Shown: positions 6,001 through 64,000, numbered from the stretch's first letter. The stretch is DNA of 64,000 bases from Rhizaria sp. SCN 62-66 (GCA_001724265.1 MEDY01000030.1:62001-126000), one strand, 5' to 3'. The notes: generated by a model not told the origin, from the letters alone. Numbers and translations: made by a program.

Positions 6001-9000
6001 CTTGTATCGTCGTGATGCTCCTATCTTGCTTGTGGCGGGTGTGGCGGCCGCGATTTCTGCCGTTGTTGCCGACATGAACACGTTTCCAGGTATTCTCAAC
6101 ATCAGCACCAACTTCAACAATGCACTTCCTCTCACTGTGGCCGTGGGCGAAAACAGTGAGGACGTCTTGGGGGAAGTGTTGAAGCCGACTGACACGATAT
6201 CTGAGCATTGTTCCCATGGAAACAAGCCTCTTCCACATCAGTTGACGTCGTCGCAAGCGTCACGTGCGAACAAACTTGCTGAAGATCTCACGCGTACAGA
6301 TGTACGCAAGATGGCTGAACCGATGCTTTGCATGCTGCTTCCTTTGCCGGCGCCGCTACCACATATTTCTCTTGTGGCCAGTCCGAATGCCAATTTGAAC
6401 TCGCAATATGCCGTCCAGTATGCGCTTAAGAATCATCCGTTTGTCGTCAACAGTCAAAATTTACAGGTCTTTCTTAACTTTGATTGCGCATTGGAAATGG
6501 CGGCGCAAATCGATGTCAAAAGCCCACCTGAGCTCTCTCGACCTACCTCCCTCTGCTATTCCTATGTACAGTCTCCAGCTCCTATCAATCTCCCACAGTG
6601 TAAAGAGGCCTATCATGCGCGGCTGTTAGGAGTTAATGCAGCATCCGTTACGAAGGCGCGGCTGTCTGTCACACATGCTTTCAAGGTAGCCCTTGACTCC
6701 GTGCGCGCAGGCGCTGTGCCGAAAGACAATGCGGATGGCAATATTCAAACCAAGGTCATGGCCGCTGCTGAGGAGTTGTTTGGTTCAGGCACTGACTCGT
6801 ATTTTGACGGTGACGACAAGTACTCACTTACTCAACATCTCGCGGCGCGCTCTGCCTGCAATGATGCGGCAGCGACCCTCATAATCGCGCCCGCATTTTC
6901 ACGATTGATGAACACCGTGCCCCTGGTGCTCGCGCCCTGGCTCTGCGGTGCTGTGCATGCGCAGCTCGAGGTTGGACTCGATATCTTTCTGTCTCTCAGT
7001 GAGCATGAGACTCAACAGTCGAGGGCGCCCTGGAACATGCTGCATCCTACGTTGATTAACCCATTGCTGCGCAGCGTGGTTCCTTCTGAGGCGTTGATTG
7101 CGCTGGCTGCCGACGCACTCGAACTTGTCGTGCGCAAACTTCCCGTCGGTGGTATGCTTAAGCTGTGGCCTGTGAAGCCTGTTTTCCCGTTCACTCCACT
7201 CGAGTCAGCTGCCGCGATGCCGGCTATCACGACTGATACTGCCGGAGCATCCGCCCAATCTGCTGTCAACGGCGGTGAGAGCTCATTTGCGACTGCCGCT
7301 CTGCGTGCCTACACCAACGTACGCACCGCGCCGCTGGCAGAGATCGCGTACGAGCTCACAGCGCAGCTGCTGCTATTCAGTATGGTTTCAAGCACACCGC
7401 CGCAGTTGTCGGCGATGGCGTCTAATGCCATGGCAAGTGTGCTCTCACGTTGGTCCGGCTCAAACTGCACAGCGGAAGAGACATGCAACAACCTGCTTCT
7501 GTTGCTTAAGTCAGAGCGCGTGCACGCGCGTGCCGCCGGACTCAGCAAGCTTGCTGCTGCGGGTGACGAGCTGGCCAAACGCTTCCGCACCGACTGGGCG
7601 CGCGTCTTGGCGGCGCCAACGCGCCTATCGGGCGCCCTTCATACCAGCGACGCGCCCACTGTGGCGGCGCTCATCGGACACGCATCGCAGTTCTTGACGC
7701 CCTTGTGGTCTGTCTGCCCGCTTGAACGCGTCCCTCTGCCGCTGCAGCTGCTGGGCTATGTGGCTCTGGGGAACCCCTTGCTGGCCGCAACATCATTCGT
7801 CAACGAGGTCGTCCAGCTGTGGCTGCCGCGCTTTGCTCTCGCCCTGCTGTCTGGCGACGTCACCCCGCTGGTTCCCTTCTCCCGCTCAATGGACGATGTG
7901 AACGAGGCCGACGTCGAGGCAGCCCCCCGGCGCTGCGCCCTGGTATTCAACGTGTTCTCAGACATTGTGAAGCAAGTCGAGTCCGTGCAAGTCGACAATC
8001 TCCCCAAGCCGCAGTGTCAAGAGAGCGCTGCTCCAGAGGAACTTGAGGCCGAAGCGCTCACGCTGGCTCAAAGCACCGAGTGGGCGCATGCGCTGGGCTC
8101 AGTCCGTATGCTGTCGGCCGTTCTAGCGCCCGCTGCGGCTCAGCAGGCTGAGGAGCCCAAGGTCTCGGTCAACCCGTGGCTGTTGTGCGTGCCGCGCTCG
8201 CAGGTCGAGCACGCCCTGGCTGTGGCCGCCGCCGTCGGGCTTGCGGCCGGTTCGGCGCTGAGTGATGTGCACGGTGACGGCCCCGCCTCGGTGGCCGCAC
8301 GCGTGCTGTTCAGTGCCGTGAGCGACGCTGCGCACCCGCACGCAGACCTGGAGCAGTGGGCGCTGGAGGCCGCCGGCGCGAGCGGAGAGCTCACGCGCGC
8401 GCTCGCCGCCACTAAGCGCGACTGGACTCACAGTGTGCAGAACGCCCGCGATCAGGAAGCTGCCGCCGCTCAATTGCAGTAGCAGCAACAGCACCAGCAG
8501 CAACAACAACAGCAACAGCGTCGGGGTGGCATCGACTTTCTGTTGTCTGCAAGTGAGCGTGTTGCAATGGGTGGCGGCGTGGATGTCCGCTCCCGGCGCG
8601 CGCGGCGATCAAACGCCGCAGCTCGTGACAACAGTGAAGACTACGTTGAAGTCGACGATGACGAAGAGGAGGCCGATGGCGATGATTACGAGGGCAAGAA
8701 CAACCGCCACATGGGTGGGTCCAAGCGCGCACGCAAGGCGTCGCAGGCGCAAGCGGCACTTAGAGATGTTGGTGTGGTGAGTTTGGGTCCCGACGGAGAC
8801 GGTGTGTATGCCGGCAACGAGGAGGAGAGTGAAGAGTACGACAAGGAGTATCGCGCTAGTCGTGGCAATGATGGCAATGATCGACGCCGGCGCCCGCAGC
8901 GTCACAAGCAGGCTCCACAGCAGCGTCGCGATGTTAACTCCCGCGGCTGTGGCGACTGTAACGATGGTGGAGAAACCGGCACTCAGCTTTCCATGAGCTC

Positions 9001-9892
9001 TGAAGACAATGTGGCGCGTTATGCACGCGAAGCTCGATACGACCGCGATGTTCTTGCTGAGCAGTTTGACCGGCTTGAAGCGCAGATGGTCGAACTTCTC
9101 GTTCGACGGGACGACGCCAATTCGATTAATAATGTCGGCTTAGCCCAGAAGCTGACTGCCGAAGTGAATGAGCTGGAAAAATTGCAGGTTGTCATTGCGA
9201 GTGCACAGAAATTCTGTCATGACTCAAAGCGCGGGCAGCGCGTCACGCGTCACAAGGTTGCCACAGATCCCGGATCTGGCTCTGATTTCGTATACTCTGG
9301 CACGGACTCCGTCTCTGGTTCCGAAAACAAAGACGGCGACAATGAGGACGACGACGAGGACGACGGCGAGGACGACGATGACCTCGTGATTGTTGCCAGC
9401 GACAGCACCGATGGCGTCGGCAGCTCCTCCGCCTCCGCATCCGCCTTCTCTGGCAAGACGAGCGCGCGCAGTGACTTGTTTGCTGTCCGCGACGGCTCCG
9501 AGCAGACCGGCGGCCGCGGGCGCCGCAGCAGCGCCAACAAAAGAACTGCTCCGGAGCCCCCTCTTGCGGGGCCCCGTGGACGCTGGGACGGTGGCAGTGT
9601 TGGCAGCGGCGGTAGCGATAACCGTGGCGGCCATGGCATGCGACGGCGGTCCGCGGCGTCGCAGAAGCATCGGCGGCGGCGCGGGGCGCGGCTGCAGGAC
9701 TTTGTGGGCTCGGATGACGACGATGAGCAGAGCGGCGACGCCAACGACGACGACTACGACGACGATTTCGAGGAAGTTTGGGATGATAGCAACAACGCCA
9801 ACAGCAACAACAGCGACAACGGCAACGATGTGGACGAACAGGAGGAAGAGGACCTGAAGAGGGCGCTTCAGCTGTCGCTTCAGGATAACTAA
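2..9892 (+). CDS. Large ubiquitin-specific protease (peptidase C19, USP9/24/34-like) with a C-terminal UIM; 5' end lies outside the window; one in-frame TAG at 8480-8482
   Basis: The frame is open from base 2. Cys box YVGLVNAGSTCYMNSLMQQLF (~1160-1222), QMDASEF, LVLHLKRF, His box GVLVHWGQINSGHYYSYIRER (~2000-2062) and WVEFND are present. ORFs 98..8482 and 8543..9892 are in the same frame and separated only by a TAG inside a poly-Q tract. The protein ends EEEEDLKRALQLSLQDN-TAA (UIM-like). Confidence 0.9.
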
Positions 9893-10191
9893 ACAGGTGA
9901 CTGAGCCGTCTCGCACGTGTCGCACTGCATCGCAGTGTTGATACTCGCTATCATGGTTCCTCATGGCGAGGAGTAGTATGTCGCAACGTGTGCACGCACG
10001 TGCTTGAACGTTTTGATGGATTAGCTAGACAAAATAACTATCAAGTATATTTGAGTGTGACGATGTGGGTGGGTGTTGCTGCGTCGTGTGGCTGAGTGCG
10101 GGTGACGAGCGTACACACGCTATCGTATCACTCGCAGTTCTCAGAGCCATCGTAGACCACACCACAAACCGCACCACACTGGTCAAGCCGC

Positions 10192-11011: not shown

Positions 11012-13663
11012 ATGGCATCTCCTTTGGGGGGGCCACGCCTCAACAAGGAAGGAGAGGATCCCGTGTCGGGTGCTCCCAGCCTCGATTACTACCAGAGTTC
11101 GACATTTGCGCAAGGTGTACGTTGTTTGTTATAGTGATTTGTCCTGTCATATTTATGTCATTGAGATTTTTTTTGTCCTATACTCTGTTAAGCTTCATAA
11201 ATCCTACCTCAATGGCTCACCTCCTGCCCGCTCATATCTTCTTTTTTTCAGTTGACGAGAGTCCCGCTCGCGTCGAGGAATCACTTCAACCAACGCATTC
11301 AGGGTCCGAAACAGCATCAGTAGGATAGCTCCGTGTTTTGGGTATCCCCCAACAACAAAGTTGTCATCGGCGGCGTCTTCGACGGCCATGGCGGCTACTC
11401 CGGCGCACTCGCGTCGTCGTCAGCTGCCGCCACCGCGCGCGCCTGGCTCGACGCCCGCGCCTCTCTGTGCGAATCCTGGACCGCGGCCGAGTGGCGCGCC
11501 GCTCTGCGCGAGCTCTTTGGCGCCATGCACGCCGGCGCGCGCATCTCACTGCTCCGCAACACGGTCCACATCCATGATATCACCGCGGGACCCGCGCTCC
11601 TCGCCCCGCAGCCCGCACCACCGGTGCCCACCGTCACCGCCGCCGTCACCGCCGCCACCACCGCTGCCGCTGCGGCTGCTGATGCCGAGGTTGCGGCTGA
11701 GAGTGCCGCGCTTGGCACCGGCGTTGCGGCGCAGCCCGTGCGCATGGTTGACGCGTCCCCGCGCCCGTGTGTGTCGCCCTGTGACCGTGACCACCCGTCG
11801 CCGGCTCTCAACTCACTCGCCACTACTCCTGTCACTGCCGCTGCCACTGCTGCTGTTGTTTCTGTGACGGCATTGGCGCCGGCGCTGTCGTCCGCCGGGG
11901 CCGCGCCGCCCGCCGCCGCTGCTCCCTGTGCCTGCGCATGCTGCCTCGCCTCTCAAGCCCCTGCCGCAGCCGCAACGTCCGCATCCGCATCAGCATCCGC
12001 GTTTGCCGCGGCCAGTAGCAGCAGCAGTCAGGGCCAGCTGGGCGGAGGCTCAACCGCGTCCGTTGCGCCCTCGATCGCTCCGTCTTCCGCCGCAGTCTCC
12101 TCAGCCTCGGCGTCCGTCGCCGCCGTCGCCACCCTGGCCGCGCTCCGTTCCCGCGCCGCCACACCAGTCAACTCGGCGACAAACACTCTACCTGGCACCA
12201 CTGCGACCGCGGTTGTGAGTGGGACTGCGAATGGTAACGCGCCGCCGTCGCCGCCCGTGTCTGCCCGCGCCCGCGCCGCCGCCGCCGCTGCGGCCGCTGC
12301 GACGCGCGAGGTGTTCTTGGGCCCGCGCCCGCTGCCTGCTGGCGCCAGCAACCAGAGCTGCGGCTGCGGAAGTGGGAGCAGCATGCCGAGCGACTGCACC
12401 AGTCCGCACATTGGCCCCAATAACCTTACTCCGAACACGAGCGGCGGCGGCGGCGTTGGCGGCGGCGGTGGCGGTGGGAGCGGCGGTGGCGGTGGGAGCG
12501 GCGGGGGGAGTGCAATTCCCCCGAATACCTCGAGTCTGTCGCTGTGCACGACCCCGCGCAACGGGGCAGGGCCGCGCGGGTCCGGTGTGTTTGCCTTTCC
12601 GTCCCCGCACAGCCACAGCGTCTGCCCCAGTGCGAGCGCCAACGCTCAGGCGCATGCGCACCCACACGGTGGCGGCGGCGCTGGCCCCGGGATCGGCGGC
12701 GGCGGCGCGAGCGAGCGTCTGTGCCCTCCGTCGCCGACACACTCTAATCTCTCAGCGTCTTCGACGACGGCGACGCTGACCCGCAAGCGCAGGTCGCTTA
12801 TCTCCCCGCCTTCGCCCGCATCCACCTCTGGCACTGGCACCGGCACTGGTATTGGCGCTGGCGCCGGCGCCGGCGCTGGGAATGTCAACGGTAGTAATGT
12901 GACTGGCGGCGGACCGAGGCCCGGAAGCGCCGCAGGGCCGCGCGCGTCCGGATCCTCACTGGGATCCTCCTCCCGCACTGGCGGGGCGCTGGGCGGACTG
13001 GGGCTGCTCGCGGGCGGCGCGCGCGCCTCGGGCTCAGCACTCAGCACCAGCCGCCGCGGCACTGGGGGCGGCGGCGGGGGCGGCGCGGGGGCTTTGCGTG
13101 GGCTAGGGCTGGGCGGTCCGCTCCCTCTTACGGCCGCGGCGGCGGCGGCGCTGGCGGAGATGGACGAAGCCGACGCTGCCGACGCGGTCGATGGCGAAGG
13201 CGATGAGTTCGAGCACCACGCTATGGACGACACCAACCACAGCCACGATCATGATTACGGTAACACGAACGCTGACGAGGATGAGGACGATGACGGGGCG
13301 GGCAAGAGAGCGCCCCCTGCGCGGCAGCGGCGGCGCGTCGAAAGCAGCTGTCCTGCACATGCCCACGCGCACACGCACGCACACAGTGGCGGCGCCGGAT
13401 GCGCTGTGTGCCGCTCACACTCGCATCCGCGCGCGCGCGCGCAGCCGACGAGCGCCAGCGCCAGCGCCAGTGTCAGCGGATCGAACTCGGACGCCGAGGG
13501 CGAGGGAGTCGCGGGGAACGGCGGCGCGCGCAAGCCGCGTACGCGCCCGCGCACGCGCGCTGGCACGCACACGCATGCGCACACGCACGCTACGCCCGCG
13601 GCCGCTCTCACTGCTGCGGAGACCGGCGCTGCCACTGCTGCCTCGGTGACGGCAGCGGCGGCG

Positions 13664-13697
<34 letters not shown>

Positions 13698-16600
13698 TGG
13701 TGAGTGCTGCTCTGGCCCCCGCGCCCGTGCCCGCTGTGGCCGCGGCGCTGCGCCCGTCGGTGCTTGTGGCACGGTCTCTGACGCCCGCCGTGACAATGGC
13801 CGCGCCCGGGACGGCTGCGAGCCGCGCCTCGACGCAGTCGCCCACTCGCTCTCACAGCCACGACCACGATCTCGGCCACGGTCACGGCCGCGGCCATAGC
13901 GGCCACGGCGGCTTCGGCCACAGCTTCGGTCTCAACCACGGCCACGGCCCCATCCTCAGCGTCAACATGCGGTCCCCCGCGCGGTCTCCAGCGCGATCCC
14001 CGGCGCGCTCCCCCGTGCGGTCCCCGCTGCTCGCGCCGGTCCGCGGGCCGCAGACGCCCTCGGTGGTGGTCCCCATGGCGGCGCGCGCGCTGCGGCGCAC
14101 GATGAGCGGCGACGACGACGAAGACGAGGATGAGATGGATTTCACATTGCCGCCACTCGCCATGCCGCCGCCCGGCACGCCGCCGCTGCGCGCGGACTCC
14201 CCCGACCGCGCCGCGCGCATGTTCAGAGGCGCGAACGCCGCCACCGCTGCCAACCCCGCCGCGGCCGCCGGGGGACACGCGCAGCGGCCGCAGCGGTCGC
14301 CGACGGTGGTGCCGCGCTCCGGGCTGGCGCTGGGCGGGATGCACGCGGTCAACGTGCTCGCGCCGGCGTCTGTGTCGATGGGCTCGCCAGTCCCGTTTGG
14401 CGGTGCGTCGCCCTTCGCATGCGCCTCACGCTCAGCCAGCGGCGGCGGCCACGGCCTCGGCTTTGGTGGCAGTTTCGGCGGCGGTGGCAGCAGTAGCGGG
14501 GTGACGAGCATGGGCAGTCCACTGCCAGTGAGTTTCGCGATGCCCGCGCCGCTGCCGCTCTCGTCCGTCACGTCCGACTCCGCCAACGACTCGGCGCAGT
14601 CCGCCCCCACCGCTCCCGGCGGCGGCGGCGGCGGCGGCACTAGCGCTGGCGCTGGCGCCGAGGACGTGACTGAGGTGGACACGGATACAGGATACCGCGC
14701 CGCGCCGCTGCTCCGTGCTCTCGCCCGCGGCGGCCGTGTCTCCTCTCTGCCGCCCGAGGCCTCGCACTCGCAGTCGCCGGGCCAGGCCCAGGGCCAGTCT
14801 GCGGCCGCGGGCGGGCGCGCGATGTTGGATCGCGACGGCGACGGGATCAACGGCAATAACGTCGCCGCGGGCAACGCCGACGGCGACGGCGCTGCGGCTG
14901 CTGCTGCGGCGACGGAGGGCATCGAAGCGCTCTCGTTGTCGCCCACCACGCGCGCTCGCTCCGGCGCCGGCCACGGCCTCGGCATCGGCGCTAGCCTCGG
15001 CATCGGCGTCGGCGCGAGCGCGGGCGCTGGCGGCGTTGGCGGCGTCGTCGGTGACTCTGCGCGCGCTGCGGTGACGCGCTCGCACAGTCTCAACTCGCGC
15101 GTGCTGCCGCCCTCGCAGTCTCTCATGATGGACGGTGACGGCAACGACCACGATCTCGAGGAGATGCCGCCTGCGCTCGCCGCGGTGGGCTCGCTGCCCG
15201 CCTGCGCCGCCACGGTCGCTGCGGACGTCGTCGCTGCCACCGCTGCCGGTGCCGGTGCCGGCGTTGGATCCAGTGCGAGCCTACTGCGGGCGCTGGGGCT
15301 GCCGTGTCTGCGCTCAGACGGCACGCACGAGCCATCTTGCTGCCACAACAGCCACACTGCCGCTGCTACTGCGGCGGCAGCGGCGGCGGCGAACGCGGGC
15401 GCGGCTGTGGCTGAGGGCCTGCGGGCCAGCTCGCTGCTGCCGCCACTCCACGGCGGCGGCCGTCGCAGCGGCGCCAGTGACTGTGCTAATGCTGCTGGTG
15501 CGCTCTCTGCGGGTGCACTGCAGAGCTGTGGCAGCGCCAGTGGAGGCTCGTCGTCGTCCTCGTCTTCTGCTTGTGTCTCTGTCGCCGCATCTGGGTTCTC
15601 TGGTAAGCCCGGCTCGGTCACGGACCCGGAGGCTTCGTTCCCGTCACTGCCGTCGTCGTCGTCGTCGTCATCGTCGTCATTGCAGCAACCGCAGTCCAGC
15701 TCCGCTCTTGTCGCTGCTGCTGCCGTCGCTACTGCTTCGACCTCAATCGACTCCGCGTCAGTGCCGAGTCCAGTCGATCTCGCGCGTTCGTGTCGGTTGC
15801 CCGCTGCGCCCGCCTCAGCCGCGGCCCCCGCCGTGTCGCAGCCCGGTTTAGCGGTTGACTTGGCGCCCAGCACTGCCGAAGACGACGAGGACGCCGCCGC
15901 CGCGGCCGCCGTGCTCTGGGCGTTGCGCTCATCCTTCGAGGAACAAGCGCTGCCACGCGTGCTCGAAGACCTCACCGCCGCCGCCGCAGCGACCGCCGCC
16001 GCCGCGACGGCCGCGTCCGCCGCCGCAGCCGCAGCGGACTGCAGCGGCGAGACCGTCGCCGTCACCGTGGATCCCGAGCCCCCGACCGCGGCGGCTATCG
16101 CCGGCGCTCTGTCGTCAGCGTGGTGGTCGTCGCCCGTCAGCCACAGCTGGCTGGCCACGGCGAGCGCGCCCGCTCGGTGGGTCGGCCGCGGCCGCGCGGT
16201 CGACGCGCGCGGGATCGTGCGCGAGCTCTTTGGCGCCAACAGCGGGGAACCGGTGCACGGAGGCACGACGGCCTCGCTCGTCATTGAGATCCGCGCACCG
16301 CCCTGCGTCGCTCCCGTCACACACGGCGGCGCGAACAACAACAGCATGGGTGATAATAACTACGACAATAATGCGGCTGATGACCCGCTGTTGCGCGTGA
16401 TTGACTACCGCTGCATTGGCGCTGCGGCGACACCCAAGCCTGGCGCCAGATTAAACCCGTCGTGCGCGGGCGCCGCGATCCTGGCTCGCCGCCGCGCCGC
16501 CGCCGCCGCCGAGGTCGCGGCCAACGCCGCCGTCGTCGCCGCCGCCGCCGGCCTGGCGCCAGGACCGCTTGACTCGACTGCGAGCTTCAGCAGCCCCGGC

Positions 16601-17770
16601 GCGAGCGGCGACTCCCCGTGTCCGACCGCCGCTGGCGACGCTGAGGCCGAGGCCGTGCCGCCCGACGCGTTGCTGTACCTGTTCCAGGACCGCGGGCTGG
16701 GCCCCGGCGTCGCGGCCACGCTTATCTGCGCCAACGTCGGCGACTCCACGGCGTGCTGCGTCACGGAGCCGCTGCCAAAGGCCAAACCGCTGCTCCTCGC
16801 ACAACGCGCCGCCGCGGCGTCAGCAGCGACGGCGGCAGCCTCCGCGACTGGCAACGGTAACGGCACTATGGCCGCCGCCGTCGCCGCCGCCGCTGGCGCT
16901 GGCGCTGCTGCTGGCGCTGCTGCTGCTGGCGCGGTGGCGGATGACCCGTGGCTGGTCCCGCGCCTGCTGTTCCTCAGCGAAGACCACGGTCCCGACAACC
17001 CTCGCGAGTACGCACGCGTGATGGCGCTGCCGGAGGACACGCACCCGGTGAAGCTGCTGTTTGTGTACGACCGCCGTGACGCCGGCGCGAAGCACCTGTG
17101 TCCGCGCGTGTTCGGCCCGGATGGGCAGCTGGATCGGCGCATCCTCGCCAGTCCGTGGTCGTTTGGGCTGCATCCAACCAACGTGCGGCAAGAGCCCGCA
17201 GCATACGCTGTGACGCCCGCGGGCGTGGGCGTGGACGCGACGTGCATTGCCATGACGCGCGCACTGGGCGATCTCTTCTCGCACCAGTTCGGGCTCACCT
17301 GGGAGCCGGCGATCTCGGTGACTGATGTGCCGGTGTACTGCGCGTACACCGTCTGCGTCGCCTCGGACGGCGTGTGGGACTGCTGGGGCTACCCAGACTG
17401 GGCCGTGGCGACGATCACGCTCGTAAAGAAGCACACACGGCAGTGGCACAAGCGCGAGCGCGAGCTGGAACGCGAGCGCGGCGCGGCGGCGGCGCCGACG
17501 GCCTCGCTCAGCGGCAGCGGCAGCGGCGTCGGCTGCAGCCCCCCCGGGTCCACCACCGGCGGCGGCGGTGTCGTCGCAGTGGCGTCGCCGGTACTGCTAA
17601 CCCGCGCGGCGGTTGAGGGCGCGGCCGTGCTGCCGCCGCAGCCGGACGTGGCCGCGCAGGCCGGTGCGGGGCTGATGCAGATGAGCCACGAACGCGCGGT
17701 GCAGAGTTTCGGTGCGCGTGGGTATGACGACAGCACGCTCGTCGTCTGGCACGGTGACGCGTATGTCTAA
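11012..17770 (+). CDS. PP2C/PPM-family Ser/Thr phosphatase with a very large low-complexity insertion; exons 11012-11116 and 11252-17770; in-frame TAG at 11321-11323
   Basis: ATG at 11012 gives MASPLGGP...TFAQG, followed by a phase-0 GTACGT...TTTTCAG intron (11117-11251). Exon 2 reads LTRVP...GPKQHQ[TAG]DSSVFW...GVFDGHGG. The later PPM motifs HGGTTA, ANVGDS, SEDHGP, MTRALGD, VASDGVWD and DDSTLVV occur in order. The gene ends in TAA. Confidence 0.88.
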
Positions 17771-21421: not shown

Positions 21422-21798
21422 TTTGAATGCGTCCTAAAATCAGGGGAACCTGCGTTATGCAGCCTAGCGTCGATCTAAGGCGACTTCTTATCGGTTAGAA
21501 ATCTCGCTAGGGTGCCCTCGGTCGAGTCCTGCTGAGTGGCTCGAACGGCTATGTCTTAACTTTCATTGACATGTCTGCCTCACATGGTCCGATAACTGTG
21601 ACAGTAATCGGGCTGCGTATACTTTTTATGTGTTTATTGTCTTTTTTTTTAATTATCCTTCTAAACTTGACTGTCTGGCTCACCATCCGACTTCCAGGTC
21701 CAGCTGCTTTAGCTGTTACTCCTTCATCGCTCACCCGCTCGCCTCACTCATGCCTGCATACGCTCTCTTTCGCCAATCTTGCCCGCTGAAGCAGACTC

Positions 21799-33534: not shown

Positions 33535-33581
33535 TATTTTTGCACTTTCGTTTGGCGCTCGACTGATAGTAGTGGCTCGGG

Positions 33582-45889: not shown

Positions 45890-45922
<33 letters not shown>

Positions 45923-51900: not shown

Positions 51901-54900
51901 GACGCAGCTGTCAGCTAGTGCCCGAGCGGCGGCCGCTCTGTCCGCGCTGTCGGAGCAAGGCCTCACAGCCGCCGCCGCCGCTGCCGCGGGCTCCGGCACC
52001 GCGGGCGCGGGCACGGTTGCACTCCACGCTGCCGCCACCGCGGCCGCGCTGGTGCAGGCCGTCGAGCGCGCACAGGCGCAGCGTCGCCGTGTGCGTCGCC
52101 GGACTCTGCTCGACGTCCAGCGCTGCTCGCGCGCCGCGGCCACGGTCGGCGACTTCGGATTTGGCCACCCGCCGCCTGGCCCGAGCGTGATGCTGACCGG
52201 CGGGAGCGATTGTGACGACGACGCCGCGCTCTGGTCTCTGGTCCACTCTTCGTACGCGGCCGCCGGGTCTGAGGCAGGTGCAATGGGCGACTGCGCGGAG
52301 CCTGAGGTGCAACTGGGTGCTCTGGGCGTCACTGCACTGCGCCCGCTCCTGGTGTACGGCGAGCACGGCTTCTCGGTCGTCGACGGTCAGGAGTATGCCA
52401 CGGCGCAACCAGGCGCTTCAGGATCGCAGTTGCCGTCTGCGGGGATTCCCCGCGGCCGTGTACGCTCTTCGCTCAGTGGCGAAGCGCGCGTCACCGCACC
52501 GCGCATTTTCAAGCGCCAGCTCGCCAAGACTGAGGACCTCGATGGATTCCTGGTTCTTGCGCCACGCACGCCAGGTATGCTGCCCTGGGTTCCTCTCACA
52601 TCGCACTGCGACTTGACTGGCGGTGTTGCTGACACTGGTGCTTTGCGCAGGTTTGATATTTCGGGCCCCACACCCTCCCTCGCCCCGGTGCGCTTTTTCG
52701 CGCCTGCTGCTCCGGCCGCGGGCCGCGGCGTCGGTAAGCTCGCTGGCATCAAGGTGCGCGCGGCTTCGTTCGGCGCTCGCGCCCCCGTAGCCGTGAGCGC
52801 TAAACGGGCTGCTGAGTGCGCGGCGGTGCCTGAAATGCTCTCGGCCACTCTGCGCACTGCCCTCGCGCGTCTGCCGCCCGCCGACCGCGCCGCTGCCCGC
52901 GCCGGCCTCAACGGCTGTACCGGTGCCTACAAGCACTCGCATTGCAACTCCACTGCCAAGACGACTGAGCGCGAGCGCGAGCCTGAGCCCACGTCTGCGT
53001 CCATTGTCGCGAGCGCAACAGCTGAGTCGGAGCCCACGTGGCAGGCAGAGTCCAGCGACGCGATGGCTTGGTTCTTGCGCGTCGCCACGAGCGTGCCCGC
53101 GCTGTCCGCCGCCGCGGCACCGGCTCTTGGCCGCGAGGCGCTGCTGCCGCATGTCCCGCTGCCGCCCGCGCCGCACGCGCTCAAGGCCGACACACGCACG
53201 TGCCTCTTCTGCCGCGGCCGCGAAAACGCGCACCCGCCCGGCGTCCACAGCACTGCGAGCCCCGGTCGCCTGCTCTCAGTCGGCTCGGTCCCGTCGGCGC
53301 TGTACGCGTCCGCACTTGAGACGGCCGAGTTCCCGGCCGCTCCGGGGCCCGCGGACGCGTTGCAGTCGACGGCCGCTATGGCGACTCGCTCACCGCTGCT
53401 GGCGCTGCCTGCGGGCGCGCGGGCGGCGATGGCGACGCTGCTGCAGTGCCCCACGAGCGCTTACACCACGCTGCCTGGCTGGGCGCACGCACAGTGCTTG
53501 GTCTGGGCCACGGGCGTGCAGGAGCGCTTCATCGAGGCCACGACCGCGCACGGCAAGATCACCGCCGCCACCCCGGGCGCTGTTGACACCGCGGTTCTTT
53601 CTGACGCCTCAGGCAACGTCAACGCCGCGGACGCCGCGGGTGTGGCTGGTGCCGCTACCCTTGCTACCGCTGCTGCTGCTGCTGCTGCCGGGGGCGCCGG
53701 TGATGCCGCTGCTCCGGCGGGCGAGGAAGGTGCAGCGGTGCCGCTGGAGGACGTGTTGATGTTCGAGACGCTACCGTGGGGCGCGCCGCCGCCACCGATG
53801 CCTGAAGCCGCACAGTACTCGCCCTTGATGCACCGTGCACTGGCGCGCGTGCACAACCTCATGGTGGGCCGTCGCCGCCCGCAGGGCTCGCTGCGCACGC
53901 CGAACCAGCTCGTGCGCGGGCTCTGGGTGCTCGTGGGCGTGCCGCCGCTGCTGTTGGCGGCCGCGGGCCGTCTCTGCGACTGCTGCGCGCGCCCCGGCGC
54001 GTCGCTGCTGTGCGCGGGCACGACCTCCGCGGCTCCGATCGCGCAGTTTGCCGCGTGTGGCTGCGCGGCGCACTTCGGCTGCGCCGTGGCCGCTGGGTGG
54101 GAGTTCCTGGGTGTCCGCCGCGTGCATTGCCCCGCGCACCGGCCGCATCCCGTGGGCTCGCTGTCGGCGCTCGCGCAGTCGCAGCTGACCCCCGCCGTCG
54201 CGCGCCGCGTCGTGGTGCAGGAGGCGTGGGCCGTGCTGGGCGACGAAGCCGGCGCGGGCGCGGATATCGCGACACCACTCACTGCGCGCCTTGTTGCCAC
54301 GCGGTCTCCCGCCGTGGCGCCGAGTGCGGCGAACGACGGCGAGGGCGAGGACGGCGACGCTGACGATGCGCCGGTGCCGCGCGCGACCGCGCGGCGCGGG
54401 CGCGGTCCAGGCGTGACGCGCATTTCGTTACGCGAGCGTGACCGCGACGGACGACGCGCTATCGTCCGCATGGCTGCCGCGCTGGTGAACGCGCTGGGAC
54501 CGGACTCGATTCTGCCGCCGCTGGCCGCGGTTCTTGGCGCCGCGTGCGTGGATCGGCCCGTGTCCGAGGACTCTGTGCGTGCTGCGCTTGCGACGCCCGG
54601 TGCGGGCTCCGCGCGGCGTCTGTTTGCGCTGATCGGTGCGTCGTGGACGGCCTGCCCCCCCGTGCCCATCATGCGCGGCGCGCCTCCGTTGTGGACACCA
54701 CAAACCACTGCTGAGCTCCGCCGTCGCGCTGCTGAGATGTTGATGAACGTGACCTCGGTCGATGACGCGCGCGCCGCCAACGCTGCCGCCGTCACCGCCG
54801 CGGCTGCCTCCGTTGCCGTCTCCGCGCTCAGTCCGAGCAGCCCGAATAACGCCAGCAACATGCCTGGCGGGACTGGCGCGACTGCGCTTGCTCCTGTGTC

Positions 54901-57667
54901 GACGCTGCTGCACCTCGGCGGCGCCACTGTGCACAGGCTCGGCGAGCTGCTGCCGCTGCTGCCCGCGTTCCACTCGCCTGCGCGGCTCGTGCCGTTCGGG
55001 TTTGCGGCGACGCGCCGGATGTGGTCGTTCCGCACCCCACGGCGCCGCGTCGTCTATGCCTTCACCGTGGGCGCCGAGGTCGACGCGCCGGCTATGGCCG
55101 CCGCCGAGGCCGCGCTGCTCGCGCTGCGCTCCACGAGCTCCTGGCGCGAGATGCTTGAGGCGTGGCGCGAGGACGAGGCGCGCGCGCTGGCTGAGGTGCA
55201 CTTAACGTCGTGGCGTCGCGCCGGCGCGCGTGACGATCCCATGTTAGGGCTGATCGGTTACCAGGGAACGCAGTACCGCTCCACGACGGCGTCGCTGGCC
55301 GGCCGCGTGCGCGATCGGCTGGCGGTGATCGGCGCTGTGCCGCTCGTCGCTGTGTCGACCGATCCCGCAGTGCTCGCGCGTGTGGCCGATGCCGCGGGGG
55401 CGTACCTCGCTGCCGTTGCCGGTCAGGTCCAGACGCACTGCGAGGTCGAGGAGGCCGCTGCGGTCGAGGCTGCCAAGCTCGCTGCGGAAGCGGCGAAGGC
55501 TGCTGCGGAGGCCGCTGAGAAGGCGGCCGCCGAGAAGGCAGCGCGCCTGGCTGCCGCGGCCGAAAGGGCAGCTGCTGCGGCCGCGAGCTCCTCCAGCGAC
55601 AACTTCTCTGACTCGTCATTCGCGACTAGTGAGAGCGCAAGCGGGTTCTCCAGCGCCACCGCCAGCGGTAGCGTTCCCGCTGACGCTGCTGATGCTGCTG
55701 CTGCAATTGCTGATGCTGATGCTGATGCGGAAGCTGCGGCGGCTCGTGCGCAAGCACTGGACGCGGCCGCCGCCGCGCACGCTGCGATGTCGATGCAGAG
55801 GGACGATTTCGACGGTGTTGACACGACCACTCAGTCAGAGCCACTCCAGCAGCAGGTTAGCGGTGACGTTGATGACGCTGACGACGACGACGACGACGAC
55901 TTGCTGCTGGGCGTGCCGGGCTCTCTGTCCGCGTCAGCCTCGGCCTCGGTCGCCGCCGCCGCGGCGCGCTACCTGCCGCCCGGTTTGCTGTGGGCAGAGC
56001 TGGTGTCCGCGACCGTGGCTGCGTTGGACGTCAGCGTCGCTCCTACACTGCGCTGGCGCCCGCGCTACACGCTCACTGCTGCGGACGCGCCTGACGAGCC
56101 TCTGGGCGACGCGTGCCCCGAAGCTCTCGCCGCCACGCACGCCGCGCGTGTCGCTGCTATCAACGACACGGCATCCGCGAAGAGCAGCCCTGCCGCGAGC
56201 ATCGCCATGAGCGACACTCCCGCTAGCCTCCGTGCGAATATGAGCGCCACCACCGCCGCACCGCCGCTGCTGCTGCTGTTCGGCCTGATGCACCCGCTCG
56301 TGACGTCGATGCTCGAGCGCTCTGCCGCGGCGCCGCTGTGCCTCAAGTACCATTTCCGCCACCGCGCAGACATCGCGCCGCTTGCTGCCCGCGCGCGCGC
56401 TCTGTGCGAGGCCACCGGACTCGACGGCACGCTGCTGCGCGCGCTGGGCCTCGCGCCAGCGCAGCTCGAGGCCACACCCGAGCTGGCCGCAGTGCGCGCT
56501 GCGTTTGCGTCTACTCGCCGCGCGACACGGCTCGCGGCGGCCCTGCGCGCGCCCGCGGGCTCCGACCCCGCAGCGAGCCAGCTGCTGCTTGCGCCGACTT
56601 GGCACGACACGATGGCGGGCCGCGCGCAGCACGATCTGCCGCCCGTCGCCGGCGGCTGCGCGCGCGCTCAGGTGCTCTCGCGTCGCAAGCGCACGAGCGC
56701 GCAGATGGGCTCGGCGCGCTACCTGGGCGCCAAGCGGCCCGCGCTGCGCGGCGACCTGTGGAGCGCGTCTGACGCCGAGGTGGCGGACTGGGCGACGACG
56801 CGCTACGCCGGCGGTCTGTCGCGTGAAGACGCGGAGATGGCCGCGCTGCTCATCCCGGCCCCGCCGGAGCCCGTGGACGTGCATGCGGCGGCCATCGCGG
56901 TCTCGCTGGCAGAGGCGGCGGGCGCGCCGGCGGCGGGCGCTGCTGCGGACGGCGGCGGCGGCGACGGCGACGGTGAGTCAGGCGCGGCGGGCGCGGGGCG
57001 CGATGGTGACGGTGCGGTGGCAGATGACGATGACGTCTCCGCGCCCACGGCCGGCGCTGCGGCGGCTGCTGCTGCGGCCGCTGCGGCGGCGTCTGCGGCG
57101 TCCGAGCACCGGCGCGACACGCGGTCCAAGGGCGCCGGCCGCGGCTCCGACGCGGTGGGCGGCGCTGATGACGGGTCATCTGGCGGTGTCGACAAGAAAA
57201 ATCTCATCCCGATGTACCGCGAGATGAAGGAGGAGGCCGAGGCGGCGCGGCCGTGCGTGGGCCACTCTCCAATCCACGAGTGGGGTCTGTTCGCGGCGCA
57301 TGACTACGAGCAGGACCAGATGATCATCGAGTATGTGGGCGAGATGATCCGCCAGAAGGTGGCCGACTCGCGCGAGAAGCGCTATGAGGCCGTTGATATC
57401 GACTCGTGCTATATGTTCCGCATCGATGCCGAGTGGATTGTTGACGCCACGAAGCAGGGCAATGCGTCGCGCTTTATCAACCACTCGTGTGACCCCAACT
57501 GCTACACACGACAGATCCAGGTCGATGGCGCCACGAAGATTGTTGTGTTTGCCAGCAGGTTTATCCCGCGTGGCATGGAGTTTACCTACGACTATTGCTT
57601 CTCCAGTGAGGAGGAGCGCATTCAGTGCCACTGCGGCACCGCCAAGTGCTCTGGACGCCTCAATTAA
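42377..57667 (+). CDS. Giant MLL/Trithorax (KMT2)-type histone H3K4 methyltransferase, 5096 aa, single ORF
   Basis: Domains in order: Tudor-like (IGQRVVVWWP...VRYDDGD, ~45005-45140), PHD fingers (~46200-46960 and ~48720-48915), bromodomain (YSSVIKVPMDF...LVWRNARDYN, ~48935-49210), second PHD cluster (~50005-50615), ePHD (~53195-54140), FYRN (~54905-55070), FYRC-like (~56270-56360), WIN motif GCARAQ (~56654-56671), SET (SPIHEWGLFA, IEYVGEMIR, RFINHSCDPNC, EFTYDY) and post-SET CHCGTAKC. The gene ends in TAA. The exact start codon is uncertain. Confidence 0.92.
43148..43186 (+). repeat. (GCCTCT)n coding microsatellite encoding Ala-Ser repeats, one of many coding tri- and hexanucleotide repeats in the window
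   Basis: gcctctgcctctgcctct... lies within the SET gene. Similar (GCG)n, (GCC)n and (GAC)n tracts occur at ~13655-13697, ~34670-34715 and ~45645-45725. Confidence 0.85.
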
Positions 57668-58022: not shown

Positions 58023-59433
58023 TCAAGTTGCGCCGCCGTCAAGCGCGATGACCTGGCCCGTAATAAAGGCAGAGCCGGGTGACGCAAGCCACGCGCACAG
58101 AGCAGCAACCTCACCGGGCGTGCCAGTGCGACCTGCTGCAGACCGCGCGATGACTTCGTCGCGGCGGGCCGCGGACAAGGCTGAGAAGAGTGACGAAACA
58201 CAGTAGAGAGTGAAGAAACACGTTGAAAATACAGCGAACGACAACAACCAACTTTTAAAACACACGGAAGCAACGTTGAAATAATGGAGCTATGTTAACC
58301 CGTCTTGTAAAATATTCGTTTACGCAGTAGGTAATATCTTCTCATGAGGATGTTTGGAGACGTACTTTTGCTGGTCATTTCAGTCTCGATGAAGCCGGGC
58401 GCAATCATGTTGACCGTCACAGAGTTGCCGCGGAAGGTCGCAACTTCCTTTGCAAGCGACTTAGTAAAGCCCACTGCACGTAGACGTATACAAACAATGC
58501 AGCGAGATATGATAATCATTGTCGAAGAGAGTTGGTTAGTGTGGTTGTCGAAGAGAGTTGGTTAGTGTGATTTCATTCATTCAATCTTTGTCCAAACGCG
58601 CTCGACTCATTATCATCACCAGGTTTAAAGAAAGCAGAAAACATATCGCACATGTCGTCATGTGAACCAAAAAGCGGATTGAGCGTACCCATTGCGGACT
58701 TGGTGGCCGCGTAAAGCGTGAGCCCCGCCGCGCCCTGCGTGCCAACGATACTGCCGAACGTCACCACACGCAGATAATCACTCTCCGCACCGTTGCCTTT
58801 AGGTGCGTGCTTTAGCATCAGTTTCGCCGCGCTCATGGCGCCGCCCACGTTAACGCGGAAGGCATCGGTCACGGTCGCGGGCGCAGTGCGCAACAACAGG
58901 CCCTGGGGGCAGACGCCGGCGCAGGCGTAGAGCTGAGACGCCGGGGCCGGGAACAGCGTGGGAAGCGCGCGGAAAACGCTCTCCAGTGCGGCCTCGTCAC
59001 CCACGTCGCAGACAAACGGCGCGACAAGCTGTTGTAGCTCTGGCACAGCGGTGGAGTCCGAGGCAGCGGCTGGCGCGGGCGCTGAGGCAGCGACGGTAGC
59101 GGTGGCGGCTGCGGTGGCGGTCATGGGGTCGCGGAACGACGCTGCAGGATGCGCAGGGGAAAGCGCAGCAATAGCTTTAGCGCAAGACTCGTTGGTGCTC
59201 GCAAGAAGCGCGACGTTGGCGCCGAGCGACAGCATTTGGTGCGCGATGGCGAGGCCGATGCCGCGTGTGCCGCCGGTGACCACGATGGTTTTGCCGCGGA
59301 GCAGCGTCGGGGACGGCAGAGAGGGCAGTGCGGGCAGCATGGGCACAGAAGATGCCGCACTTGATAGAGGTGCGGCGCATTGCGATAAAACACGGCGCAC
59401 AGAGCGCGCAGACCGCAGAGCGGAGCGCAGCAT
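58023..59433 (-). CDS. Short-chain dehydrogenase, FabG/CBR4-like 3-oxoacyl-ACP reductase, probably mitochondrial; exons 59433-58689, 58473-58366 and 58180-58023
   Basis: Motifs VTGGTRGIG, GSIVGTQGAAGLTLYAATKSAM|VGFTKSLAKE, VNMIAPGFIETEMT and FITGQVIALDGG. Two phase-1 GTACG...CAG introns restore the frame. The N-terminus MLRSALRSARSVRR is Arg-rich. The gene ends in TGA. Confidence 0.9.
58519..58569. repeat. Perfect 25-bp tandem duplication (26-bp period) inside intron 1 of the SDR gene
   Basis: ttgtcgaagagagttggttagtgtg occurs at 58519-58543 and 58545-58569. Confidence 0.9.
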
Positions 59434-59760
59434 GGGGATTGGAGTGGGGCTCTGGGCCAACTGAAGCGGAGAAAAGTTGAGGTCGTTTGCAGGAGTGTGA
59501 TCGTCAAGTGAGTTTAGATTAAAATGCGGTGCCTTAAAATAATTATTTATATACTATTCATTAATTATATATTCTAAAACCCCTTTAGACACCCACATTG
59601 CTCACTTTCTCCGTCTTCGATTCCTGTTCGTTGTGACCGTTAGACCTCCTTGGCTCGCGCTTTGGTTACCTCTTGATATCAAGTTGCATTCAAGGGTTTT
59701 CTCTTCAAGGCTGGTTTATCTGGGTTTTAACAAGTGGTTTACGTTAGATACCGAAATATT

Positions 59761-62700
59761 ATGTCGTACTCCCGCGACGGCGCGCAGTTCCAGACACCGC
59801 GCGGCCCCGCCCCTGCCGTCGATCCAGATCTCACCCGCGGCTACGCTTCCTCCGCTCCTCCACGCGAACACACGAACCCATTCCACAGTCTTTCCCAGCG
59901 CGCCCACGCCGCGCCTTTTGACGGTTTGCGCGAGGCTACCCATTTATTGACGCCAATTCCTGCTGTCAGGCCTCCCGCGATGACTCCCCTCCGCTCTCCT
60001 TTCTCCGGCCCCGCGCCCGCGCCTCAGCCCGCGGTCGCTTCCAACTCTGCTACGAGCGCGAGATACGGCGTCCCCGCGGCCGTCCCGCTGCCTTTTAGTC
60101 TGCAACCGCGCCCTGCAGCAGTGAGCGCGCCCCAGAGCCACAGTAGCACGCACGGTCCAATGCACACCTCGACCATCAACACAAGCAGCAGCGCAGCAGC
60201 AGCTAACACGACGTCACACGCGGCCAGTGGCTCTCTGCTCGACGCACAGCTCTCTCATGCGCGCGCTGTGACGGCCGTCTCCGCGCCCGTCTGGCCGCCG
60301 CTGCCGCCGGCGCTGGCAGACGCCGCCACAGCCGCGCTTGCCACTAAAACATCGTACATCGATGTCCGCACGATGTCGCCCCCGCCACCCTCTCGAAACG
60401 CCCACGGATACGGTAACACGAGTGTTGATTACGGTGTTGCTAACAGTGGGCGCGGAGGGGTTGCGGCCGCAGCTGCAGCGGCGCGCGCATCGCGGATTGC
60501 GGCAGAGTCATCGTTCTCCGCAGTCTCCGCCGCTGCCACTGCAACGCCCTATACTCACATCCACAATCACAGTCAGGCTTATGGACACAGCGCTGGTTCC
60601 AACCGCGCTACCGGCATCAACGCGGTTCCGTTGCTGCAGCCAGTGCCTGTGCCGGCGAGTCTCGCTGTTCACAGTCCCGCAACGCACAGCAGTTATCACA
60701 ACCTCAACGCACTCAACGCGAGCGTCTTGAACACTAGCGCCAGCGCCGCCGTCGCCATCGCTGCCAGCGCCGGCGCAGCCGACGCACACGCGGTCAGCGA
60801 GACTCTGCGCCACTCGGCGTCGCTCTCGTATGCGAACTCGGCAGCGGTGGCTGAGGCGCTGGCGGCTCTGCAGGCGCGGGCGCTAGCTGCCGAGGCTGAG
60901 GCCGCGCGGGTCCGGGGCGAGTCCCTTCGTGCCGCGGCCGCCGCCGAGCGCGCGCGCGCCGCGTGGGAGGACCGCCTTGCCGCGGCGGCGCGGGAGCGAG
61001 ACTCGGCGCGGTTGGAGCAGGAACAGACGGCTAAACGGCTCGAGCAGACCGAGGCAGCGCTCGCGCAGCGCAGTGCGGAGGCGGCGGCGGCGGAGGCGGC
61101 GGCGCGCGCGCGGGGGCGCGCAGACGCGGCCGCTGCGGGCGACGCCGCGCGCGCCGCTGCGGCGGCGGAGGTGGCCACCGTTGAGGCCGCCGCGCGCGCC
61201 GAGGCCGCCGCCGCCGCGGACGCGCACAAGACCGCCGCGGCGGCCGCGGGGGAGACGGTCCGCCGTCAGGCCGGGCAGATGCGCGAGCTCGAGGCCGCCG
61301 TGCTGCGGCTGGAGAGGGAGGCCGTGGCTGTGCGCGCTGAACGCGACCAGATCGCCGCGGAGGCTGCCTTCCTGCTGGAAGAAAAGACGCGTGAAGCGGA
61401 GCGCGCGGCGGCGGAGGTCGGCGCACTGGCTCCGGCGCGGGACGAGGCTGCCGCACTGCGTCGCGCGGGGGCTGAGGCTGCGCGTGAGGCTGCAGCGGCG
61501 CGGGCTGACGCCGCGGCGGCGCGCGCCGAGGCTGCGGCTGCCATCGACGCCCGTGACCGCGCCGCTGCCGCCGCTGCGGACGAGCTGGCTGCGGCAGACG
61601 CGGCGGCGGCGGCGGAGCGCGAGCGCGCGCGGGCCGACTGGCACCGCGAACGCGCCGCGCTGACCGCTGCGCTGGAGCGGGAGCGCGCGCGGTGGGACGA
61701 GGCCTGGCAGCGCACACGCGAGACCGCCGCGGAGGACGCGCGGCGTGAGCTCGCTCTGGCGGAGGCTGCGGCGGCGCGGGAGGTAGCCGCAGCCAAGGCC
61801 GCGGTCGAGCGCGAGCGCGCGCGCGCTGAGGAGCGCGTGGCATCACTGGCAGACGCGCTGGCCGCTGAGGCCGAGAGCGGAGCAGAGCAGGTGGCCGCGC
61901 TTGAGGAGAAGCTCCGGCGCGCGCTCGCGGCCGCGGCGCAGCACAGACAGGGCGTGTGCCGTTGTGTGTGCCAGACTGGCGACGGTGTGCCCTGCAGTGC
62001 GGTTGCGGCGGGCCAGGACCGCGTTCTTGTCAACTTCGTCTCTGACACGGATCATAACGCAAGTAATATGAACAACAATCAACATAACGCCACCGTTGAC
62101 AATGTAACTGTTTCTCACAATGCTATTGCTGCTAAGCGTGGTGATACATCGGCACCGGCGACGCCACGTAGCTTTGCACGCGGCTTGCCTCCTGTGGAGT
62201 CGTCACCGGCCGCTGGAGCGCGTGGGACGCCTCTCAGGCACTCTTCTTCTGTCACCGGGATGCAACAGGGAAGCAGGGGCGCGACGCCGGCGCGCAAGTG
62301 GGTGCTGATCAGTCCCGCTACGACTGCGGCCGCGTCCGCTACTTCAGCTGGTGCTGCTGCTGCTGCCGCTCCTACACACGAGTCTGCCACAGTGGTCGAT
62401 GCAGACAACGATCATCACAATGACGAAGAGCAGAGCCAGGGAGACCGTGAGCAAGGCGACCGCGAGAAGAGCCGTGCAGGCGACTCTGTTGTACGCGCGT
62501 TGGATGCGATGCTTCACGATGCGTCGCTCACCACGCTCACCGCAACTGCTCCTGCACAGGGTGGAGTGGCTTTACACAGGGATATCCATGGCGAGAATGC
62601 GACAGCTACTTCGGCGAATCACAGTCACAAGGGCTCTGAGGTGTCTTACACCGGGCACTTTGCACAGTCTCCGTCGCACTCGCGCTTCTTTGCACAATCA

Positions 62701-64000
62701 CATACCGCCGCGACTGGCGCTGCTGAGACGGCCACGGAGTTTACGCAGACTCACGCGTACGCCGACGCAGCGCGTGCGCCCAACGCAAACGCTGGACTCC
62801 CACTTTAGCGGCCCTACAACTTGCCCAGCCACCAGCGTTCACAGTCGCTTTCTCACGGCAACACGAGCAATGCGGCAGCCGCCGCTGCGGCGGCCCAGGC
62901 CGCGGCCGCTGCACTGCGCTCACAGTCTCAGCTCCCGTCGGGGTTACACTCGCAACTACACTCGATCGCGCCCTCGCCGGCCGTTTCCGCCTCTGCCGCC
63001 GTCGCGCCCACCGTCGCCGCGACGGCTGCGGTGACTGAGGCGCCGTCGGGCACTGCGGCGCTGGACGCGTTTCTGAACATGAACATGAACATGAGCCAGA
63101 ACGTGAGCGCGAACATGAGCGCAGCTGCAGGGAAAGCGAACACAAACGCTGCTGGGGGCGACGGAGCTGTTCTGGCCCCGCTCGTGGCAGCTGCACTGAG
63201 TCAGCTGCAGACGCAGCAGTCGTTGTTGCTGCACGTGTTGGAGCGACAGGACCGCATTCTACTGCCGAATACTGCCGCTAGCGTGAATAACACTGCGCAC
63301 AATACGGTGGTTGAGGCAGAAGTCAAGCCGCATCTGCTTCAGGTTAAGACACCAGTAAAGGAACGCACACCTGCACCCTCGCCCAAAGCACAGTCTTCAT
63401 CTGTTCACGCATCCCCTGCTCCTGTCGCGGTGCCTGCTGTCGCTGACGCACGCAGTGCAAAGCTGTCGCTGCCGCTTCCGCTCACTCCGGCATCTGCATA
63501 CGCCTTTGCACACGGCCATGACAGCAAGCGTAGCTTCAACTTTGCACCTGCACCTGCTATTGCTGAATCGCCCGCTGCGACTGCTGCTCCGGCCGCGCTC
63601 GCAGTGCCCTCGGCTCCCGTCTCCACAGCGCCCTCCCCTAGGGCCTCTGCTTCCCCAGCTGCTGCAGGCGCGGCGACACAGCCAAACGCTGCGGGGGGCC
63701 GGCCGCATCACCCTGCGTTCCGTTCCCCTTTGTCGCCTTCAGCGGCTGAGCGCGAGCGCCAGCGCGACCGCGAGGAGCAGCTGAGGCTGCAACAGCTGCA
63801 GCAGCTGCAGCTGCAGCGTGCCGGCGACAGCGAGGAACAGAGCTCGCGGCTGCAGAGTGACCGCGAGTCTGAGCTCGGCGGCTTGACAAGCGACGACGAA
63901 CGCGGCCAAACTTTCCTTGCGCTCGTCGACGATGACGTTGCTGACTCCAGTGACGACGACGCTTACTCGCGTTTTGCTCGCAAGAATGAGCCGCGCAATG
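59761..64000 (+). CDS. Coiled-coil, low-complexity protein of unknown function; in-frame TAG at 62806-62808; runs off the window end
   Basis: ATG at 59761 marks the AT-to-GC transition. There is a long E/R/A heptad-like region at ~60840-61945. After the TAG the same frame stays open for the remaining ~1190 nt with the same Ala/Pro/Gln-rich codon style. Confidence 0.75.

Follow-up and report, generated by a model that had tools for sequence, protein, structure and literature searches.

The window analysed here is a 64-kb stretch of eukaryotic nuclear DNA deposited as Rhizaria sp. SCN 62-66 (GCA_001724265.1, MEDY01000030.1:62001-126000), with a GC content of 58-73% and 12 genes spread over both strands. 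Five of these genes, encoding a ubiquitin-specific protease (USP), a PP2C phosphatase, a MORN-repeat protein, the dynactin subunit p25 and, at the end of the window, an alanine-rich coiled-coil-like protein, carry a TAG triplet in frame. From these triplets, an initial annotation had proposed that UAG is read as a sense codon, most likely for glutamine (Gln), while UAA and UGA serve as stops. All five TAGs are found at the places it gave (Table 1), and we consider this reading of the code likely. It is supported by homology across the TAG of p25, by coding signal on both sides of four of the TAGs, by the recurrence of the same TAGs in other assemblies and strains, and by the absence of TAG from all 11 gene ends that can be seen. 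This support extends to one window, and from it we infer that the code holds genome-wide.

Table 1 Features of the window, with the genes that carry an in-frame TAG first and the remaining genes after them; coordinates count from the first letter of the window.
Feature	Coordinates	Strand	Description	Stop
Dynactin subunit 5 (p25)	41192..41878	-	228 codons; Pfam DCTN5, E 1.1e-24; PDB dynactin subunit 5, E 1.4e-24	TGA
TAG no. 4	41567..41569	-	codon 104, left-handed beta-helix domain of p25; TCA TAG ACT	
Ubiquitin-specific protease (USP)	2..9892	+	Pfam UCH, residues 388-763, E 3.8e-48; 5' end outside the window	TAA (at 9890)
TAG no. 1	8480..8482	+	within a poly-Gln run; CAG TAG CAG	
C-terminal ubiquitin-interaction motif (UIM) of USP	9839..9889	+	Pfam UIM, residues 3280-3296, E 5.5e-4	
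CAG in the window, TAG in strain X4	9869..9871	+	9869 C>T, inside the UIM, 7 codons before TAA	
MORN-repeat protein, exon 1	25332..31866	+	Pfam MORN; ATG located; coding score	
TAG no. 3	26178..26180	+	MORN gene; CAG TAG CAG	
MORN intron (model)	31867..31990	+	124 nt, GTACGT...GATAG	
MORN last exon	31991..32817	+	zero Pfam families matched	TAA
Ala-rich coiled-coil-like protein (last gene)	59761..63999	+	zero Pfam families matched; 3' end outside the window	
TAG no. 5	62806..62808	+	last gene; CTT TAG CGG	
PP2C exon 1 (model)	11012..11116	+	ATG + 35 codons, then GTACGT	
PP2C intron (model)	11117..11251	+	135 nt, GC 0.36, GTACGT...T-run CAG	
PP2C exon 2	11252..17770	+	Pfam PP2C, residues 2016-2066 of product P0002, E 4.1e-7	TAA
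TAG no. 2 (probable)	11321..11323	+	23 codons into exon 2, 19 codons before DGHGG; CAG TAG GAT	
Threonyl-tRNA synthetase (ThrRS)	18512..21433	-	Pfam tRNA-synt_2b, HGTP_anticodon, tRNA_SAD	TGA
CFA20-domain protein (CFAP20-like)	21948..22766	+	Pfam CFA20_dom, E 3.4e-11	TGA
DinB-family protein	23825..24943	-	Pfam DinB, E 4.4e-14	TGA
Condensin CAP-D2 (Cnd1), exon 1	33582..38441	+	Pfam Cnd1, Cnd1_N	
CAP-D2 intron (model)	38442..38614	+	173 nt, GTACGT...CATAG	
CAP-D2 last exon	38615..39430	+		TAA
V-ATPase subunit F	40352..40843	+	exon 1 40352-40402, exon 2 40526-40843; Pfam ATP-synt_F (exon 2), E 4.9e-20	TAA
V-ATPase F intron	40403..40525	+	GTACGC...TTTAG	
MLL/Trithorax-like SET protein	42344..57667	+	Pfam PHD, Bromodomain, FYRN, SET; no TAG	TAA
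Short-chain dehydrogenase (SDR)	58573..59553	-	Pfam adh_short	TGA

The clearest of the five is the TAG of p25, which homology to known dynactin subunits places inside coding sequence. The Pfam DCTN5 match, residues 168-319 of the translated product P0004, runs as a single stretch over the TAG at residue 230. The dynactin subunit 5 chains of the PDB (query residues 42-195 against chain residues 11-163) align without a gap at the TAG, with one single-residue gap five residues later. A product stopped at codon 103 would be without more than half of the domain of approximately 180 residues. A scan of metagenome contigs for p25 yields 11 loci, two of which are useful, the other nine being distant (23-33% identity). 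The first, L001, is 99% identical, belongs to the same species and comes from another metagenome record; it carries the same TAG. The second, L002, is a 72%-identical relative, against which the ratio of non-synonymous to synonymous differences (pN/pS) is 0.30 before the TAG (100 codons) and 0.30 after it (123 codons), with synonymous sites near saturation. The two halves of p25, upstream and downstream of the TAG, have thus been equally constrained. The public gene call made under the standard code (P0007) cuts p25 at the TAG and consists of 169 amino acids with a false upstream start. As such calling truncates proteins, metagenome annotations of this lineage are wrong wherever TAG occurs.

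The TAGs lie within continuous coding sequence at four sites, namely in USP, the MORN gene, p25 and the last gene. Homologs span the TAG in p25; at the other four of the five sites, the evidence consists of the continuity of the frame and a coding score, calculated from codon usage per frame in 300-nt windows. When TAG is taken as sense, the frames 2..8482 and 8483..9892 are joined in USP, 25194..26180 and 26181..31892 in the MORN gene, 41567..42256 and 41192..41566 in p25, and 59731..62808 and 62809..63999 in the last gene. The USP frame stays open for 469 codons past the TAG, and the UIM match, at 20.0 bits just under the curated Pfam cut-off of 21, is located at its extreme C-terminus. Its frame-0 score is 0.20-0.41 in the three windows before the TAG and 0.24-0.42 in three of the four windows after it, the last one scoring 0.07. 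Strain differences listed past the TAG of USP comprise three synonymous changes, one non-synonymous change and one CAG>TAG. C-terminal homologs of USP extending over the TAG were found neither by a word-indexed search with residues 2450-3296 nor by an exhaustive search with 1030 residues (0 matches at E <=0.001), so that its continuity rests on the frame, the coding score, the strain differences and the UIM.

Frame 0 of the MORN gene and of the last gene scores 0.11-0.37 both before and after the TAG, with no dip. A positive score up to and straight past the triplet leaves no space for an intergenic spacer. We also considered, and rejected, a pair of neighbouring genes sharing one frame: coding scores are high in the 300 nt directly downstream of each TAG, whereas true spacers measure <0.3 to ~1.1 kb and have 49% GC overall. 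From the intergenic density of TAA and TGA together (33.5 per 1000 trinucleotides), the chance of finding 469 (USP) and 397 open codons after a TAG is roughly 1e-7 and 1e-6, respectively.

The fifth TAG, in PP2C, is probably coding as well under a predicted intron model. The 300 nt upstream of this TAG do not look coding, and the triplet lies between the ATG of the modelled exon 1 (11012), the only in-frame ATG ahead of the DGHGG motif, and this motif, which we take to be part of the PP2C metal site. The model is favoured by a GC content of 0.55 in 11252-11320 versus 0.36 in the intron, and by an A>G difference at 11311 that is synonymous in frame. The N-terminal part of PP2C, read through the intron, matches zero Pfam families. 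A contig of run X5 that starts exactly at 11252, the first base past the predicted acceptor, and has 181 further letters lying elsewhere would fit a spliced PP2C cDNA, as would the lack of X5 depth at two intron places; it is not counted, because the splice joint is unlisted and the run is rated probably DNA. Between DGHGG and the Pfam-matched C-terminal catalytic part, PP2C contains a Gly/Ala/Ser-rich low-complexity stretch of ~1900 residues. The strand opposite to PP2C is open for 825 codons, a side effect of its 73% GC.

The TAGs recur in independent material. Strains and sequencing runs were compared as assembled contigs, not reads, over one 20-kb stretch of the window, with the TAGs of p25 and the last gene lying outside it. 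Contigs of run X3, from another study, match 8200-10678 and 10697-11786 of the window without a difference; at the TAGs at 8480 and 11321, independent assemblies therefore agree letter for letter. A diverged contig of X4, with 12 differences over 9621-11383, keeps the TAG at 11321, as does the X5 contig. Furthermore, a polyA-RNA contig of X9 covers 25898-26282 and is unspliced over 26178.

The visible gene ends comprise six TAA and five TGA once two introns are modelled, in agreement with the initial annotation, and TAG is found at 0/11. The MORN gene and CAP-D2 end in TAA only when their modelled last exons are added. Internal TAA or TGA triplets, which no gene had been expected to need, number 0 in 18,308 codons. 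A coding-like open reading frame (ORF) ending in TAG was found in none of the 11 intergenic stretches, where all ORFs of >=50 codons score <=0.16. TAG use is sparing, as had been stated: ~0.27 per 1000 codons, <1% of Gln codons, and none in the 5107-codon SET frame. TAA is the commonest stop (6/11) although the GC content at third codon positions is 0.65-0.83, where TAA is expected to be rare.

As to the amino acid, glutamine is probably the best guess for UAG, judging from the codons around the TAGs. Two of four TAGs stand between two Gln codons (Q_Q), compared with 57 of 18,282 positions overall (P 5.8e-5), and a Gln codon directly precedes the TAG in three of five cases, PP2C included (P 2.7e-4). 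One CAG/TAG strain difference points the same way: the 9869 C>T change in the UIM of USP, seen in one X4 contig at a depth of 6.73 and 249 letters from the contig end. UAG use thus seems to be still polymorphic within the species. The five contexts differ and only 2/5 are Q_Q, which bears out the claim that no common readthrough motif is present. The assignment to glutamine itself stands in part: codon context and the strain difference favour it, and no TAG falls on a conserved column.

We postulate that UAG would be read by a tRNA-Gln, either a dedicated one with a CUA anticodon or the normal CUG tRNA as a near-cognate, and that eRF1 would have lost or weakened its grip on UAG. After the loss of UAG termination, TAG would arise from CAG by C-to-T change. 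The location of the TAGs mainly in Gln-codon tracts fits such an origin. The Q_Q excess may reflect this C-to-T origin in CAG tracts, or a decoding that is still context-dependent, as in QXQ readthrough in yeast. Within the 64-kb window, ARAGORN and Rfam detect no tRNA genes and no other RNA genes.

Several observations count against UAG as a glutamine codon. No TAG lies on a conserved Gln column, and at the only alignable site, p25, the column is variable: opposite the TAG stand Lys in mammalian p25 and Glu (GAA) in the nearest relative, and GAG to TAG is also a single step. The Q_Q context is far commoner for TAG (2/4) than for ordinary Gln codons (15/556). Usage is far below that of known cases, with five TAGs in ~18,300 codons; in phyllopharyngean ciliates, 78-91% of genes carry UAG according to the available excerpt of PMC11687900, versus the few TAGs here. 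Independent DNA assemblies cover neither 26178, where the X3 contig stops at 26171, nor 62806, which is outside the stretch compared, and the X9 RNA contig carries one difference whose place is unlisted. The PP2C site depends on a predicted acceptor, and an alternative acceptor, CAGTAG at 11323, would remove the TAG and keep the frame. With this codon usage, 60% of random single-base nonsense changes would produce TAG, which makes the all-TAG pattern (5/5) weak, with p ~0.08. TAG makes up 20% of intergenic stops, and at that share its absence from 11 gene ends has p ~0.09. All these counts come from one 64-kb window with five TAGs (plus one in a strain) and 11 gene ends. The case for UAG as sense rests on p25 homology, on the continuity of frame and constraint, and on persistence across samples, not on tallies.

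Among the alternatives, a standard or ambiguous code is unlikely. Here, UAG would be read through by a near-cognate tRNA-Gln, or would act as a stop only near mRNA ends, and the long forms would be partial products. The rarity of TAG suits this explanation, and a sample of 11 gene ends is compatible with occasional TAG termination. Two of four TAGs stand in the exact QXQ context, in which a stop codon between Gln codons is decoded as Gln in yeast, as described in the available part of a preprint (Leslie et al. 2026, PMC13192750); this likeness may mean that context is needed for decoding. The yeast case concerns premature stops and partial readthrough under the standard code, whereas here an essential domain contains a TAG with no Gln codons around it, and TAG closes 0/11 genes. 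The TAGs of p25 (TCA TAG ACT) and the last gene (CTT TAG CGG) have no Gln context, and p25 ending at codon 103 would miss most of its domain, yet its downstream half is equally constrained. Programmed readthrough would entail a complete product at UAG and a shared context; p25 is cut at codon 103 and the contexts differ. In ambiguous codes (Condylostoma, karyorelicts, the UAA type of Blastocrithidia), the codon also ends genes, unlike the 0/11 observed here, a small sample with which rare use is compatible.

Slightly less probable is a sense UAG that specifies another amino acid. A single base change separates TAG from codons for Glu, Leu, Ser, Lys, Tyr and Trp. The Glu codon opposite the p25 TAG in the nearest relative would suit the first of these, and UAG is on record as Leu, Ser and Glu in other eukaryotes (PMC11687900, available excerpt). 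Reassignments of UAG alone to residues other than Gln are described, in the excerpts at hand, for the rhizarian exLh (Leu), the TARA phyllopharyngeans (Leu) and Scotinosphaera (Ser) (PMC5304391; PMC11687900). These share with the present case the decoupling of UAG from UAA and the same CUA anticodon logic. They differ in that context and strain evidence favours Gln here, although no conserved column speaks against Leu or Ser. The p25 position is a variable loop, occupied by Lys in mammals, three of the five TAGs follow CAG, two have CAG on both sides, and the strain difference is between CAG and TAG.

Removal of the TAGs before translation, as short introns, at intron ends or by RNA editing, is highly improbable. 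The claim that no splice sites remove the TAGs holds for four sites and probably for PP2C, but the organism does have introns. Four are modelled, three of which end in TAG, so that splicing-out of the in-frame TAGs had to be tested. The CAGTAG acceptor of PP2C would suit removal, and at the last gene a GTACGC lies 49 nt upstream of the TAG and a CTTTAG ends at it. This 52-nt candidate is not a multiple of three, and the resulting frame scores -0.13 versus 0.35 unspliced. An intron at the p25 TAG was rejected, because the alignment to solved chains leaves no space for it. Upstream of the TAG, the coding strand has its closest GTACG at 1.1 kb in USP and at 343 nt in the MORN gene, in both cases within coding-like sequence; GTACG occurs at chance frequency (79 found, 91 expected), and the X9 RNA contig is unspliced over the MORN site. 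Assembly errors or true nonsense mutations in decaying genes, with which the 60% share of TAG among random nonsense changes leaves the all-TAG pattern compatible, are just as improbable, because identical TAGs persist in contigs of other studies and diverged strains, ~55 kb of reading frames contain no frameshift (the 5107-codon frame and an 8.4-kb frame being unbroken), the 21 coding differences among 40 listed (17 further ones are unlisted) comprise 14 synonymous, six non-synonymous and one CAG>TAG, and pN/pS is 0.30 downstream of the p25 TAG.

A sense UAG, most likely glutamine, with UAA and UGA as stops, has a close counterpart in Iotanema spirale (Fornicata). In the available portion of its description, UAG, inferred to mean Gln, is found in frame and never at gene ends, and UAA and UGA still terminate translation (Panek et al. 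2017, PMC5304391). The same portion counts 204 in-frame UAGs in 126 genes, UAG forming ~8% of Gln codons and UAA ending 104 of 119 genes, and proposes a tRNA-Gln(CUA) together with an altered eRF1 as the mechanism (PMC5304391). The standard code is found in free-living relatives of Iotanema, according to the excerpt available (PMC9161772). The window resembles Iotanema in three features: an in-frame UAG spanned by homologs, the absence of UAG from gene ends, and UAA and UGA as the only stops. It differs in its far lower UAG usage, in the nearly equal number of TAA and TGA ends (6 vs 5), and in habitat, Iotanema living in the gecko gut and the present organism occurring in bioreactor, wastewater and sludge metagenomes with a GC-rich genome. 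UAG alone is also read as Gln, with UAA kept as a stop, in the ciliates Hartmannula sinica, Trochilia petrani and Protocruzia tuzeti (McGowan et al. 2024, PMC11687900, in part); there, UAA ends 87-98% of genes and UAG is present in 78-91% of them. Within the phyllopharyngeans, UAG went to Gln in two cases and to Leu in one (PMC11687900). Unlike the ciliates with UAG as Gln, the window combines very long genes with a GC content of 58-73% and has spliceosomal introns whose 5' site is GTACG; it gives no sign of ciliate affinity, the phylogeny being that of ThrRS only.

Reassignment of UAG alone is therefore already known, and what is new here would be a further case in another lineage. Nuclear codes with different meanings of UAG and UAA are described from a handful of lineages in the excerpts available (PMC5304391; PMC11687900). 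Our search, which left supplements outside its reach, brought up no publication on UAG reassignment in a GC-rich protist from wastewater. We tentatively suggest that glutamine captured UAG independently and recently in evolution, in an unsampled GC-rich eukaryotic lineage where the process is at an early stage, a scenario that we rate somewhat below even chances. With similar reserve, the early stage would be seen in a UAG that has gone from gene ends, accounts for <1% of Gln codons, is re-entering mainly CAG tracts and is polymorphic between CAG and TAG. Outside the known lineages, another case would represent one more independent origin and extend the range of conditions for such codes to GC-rich genomes with very long genes and balanced TAA and TGA use. 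If true, an early-stage capture would offer a natural snapshot of stop reassignment, and its GC bias would be at odds with the usual account based on AT pressure. The low density of TAG, its bias towards Gln tracts and the CAG/TAG strain difference would allow codon capture to be tested against an ambiguous intermediate.

Parts of the window are present in public metagenomes in 10 of the 12 rows listed, from six studies of bioreactors, wastewater, activated sludge and a fuel cell, and this occurrence indicates an uncultured protist. A search with ThrRS returns one relative at 71% identity and other environmental relatives at 45-54%; named eukaryotes show 52-60% identity, but over only 42-47% of the query. 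In a quick single-gene tree of ThrRS, built from 37 rows picked by hand out of 120 listed, the window falls inside an all-environmental clade of nine (SH-like approximate likelihood ratio test, SH-aLRT, 99), with oomycetes, a plant, Amoebozoa, animals and fungi placed elsewhere. The Atlas label for ThrRS is no finer than 'eukaryote, commonest Oomycota'. The ThrRS product P0010 comes from a contig recorded as up to 122 kb long, which means that longer assemblies of the organism exist. For the 71-73% relative, there are contigs of 13-14 kb, represented by the proteins P0006 and P0011. CAP-D2, used as a query for further DNA of this organism or of related ones, gave zero matches in genome contigs or viral contigs.

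Among the neighbouring genes, the SET protein is very large (~5100 residues) and is encoded in one unbroken frame of 5107 codons from stop to stop. The DinB family is mostly bacterial. Its member here lies in a eukaryotic contig, shows the codon usage of its surroundings and may stem from gene transfer. The introns are sparse and spliceosomal, 123-173 nt in length, with an unusual 5' site, GTACG(T/C), in all four and TAG in place of CAG at the 3' end of three, in an organism in which TAG is apparently no stop. The intron of V-ATPase subunit F is confirmed by L002, in which the gene runs continuous over the junction. Its lack of this intron, in a 72%-identical relative, points to intron gain or loss between close relatives.

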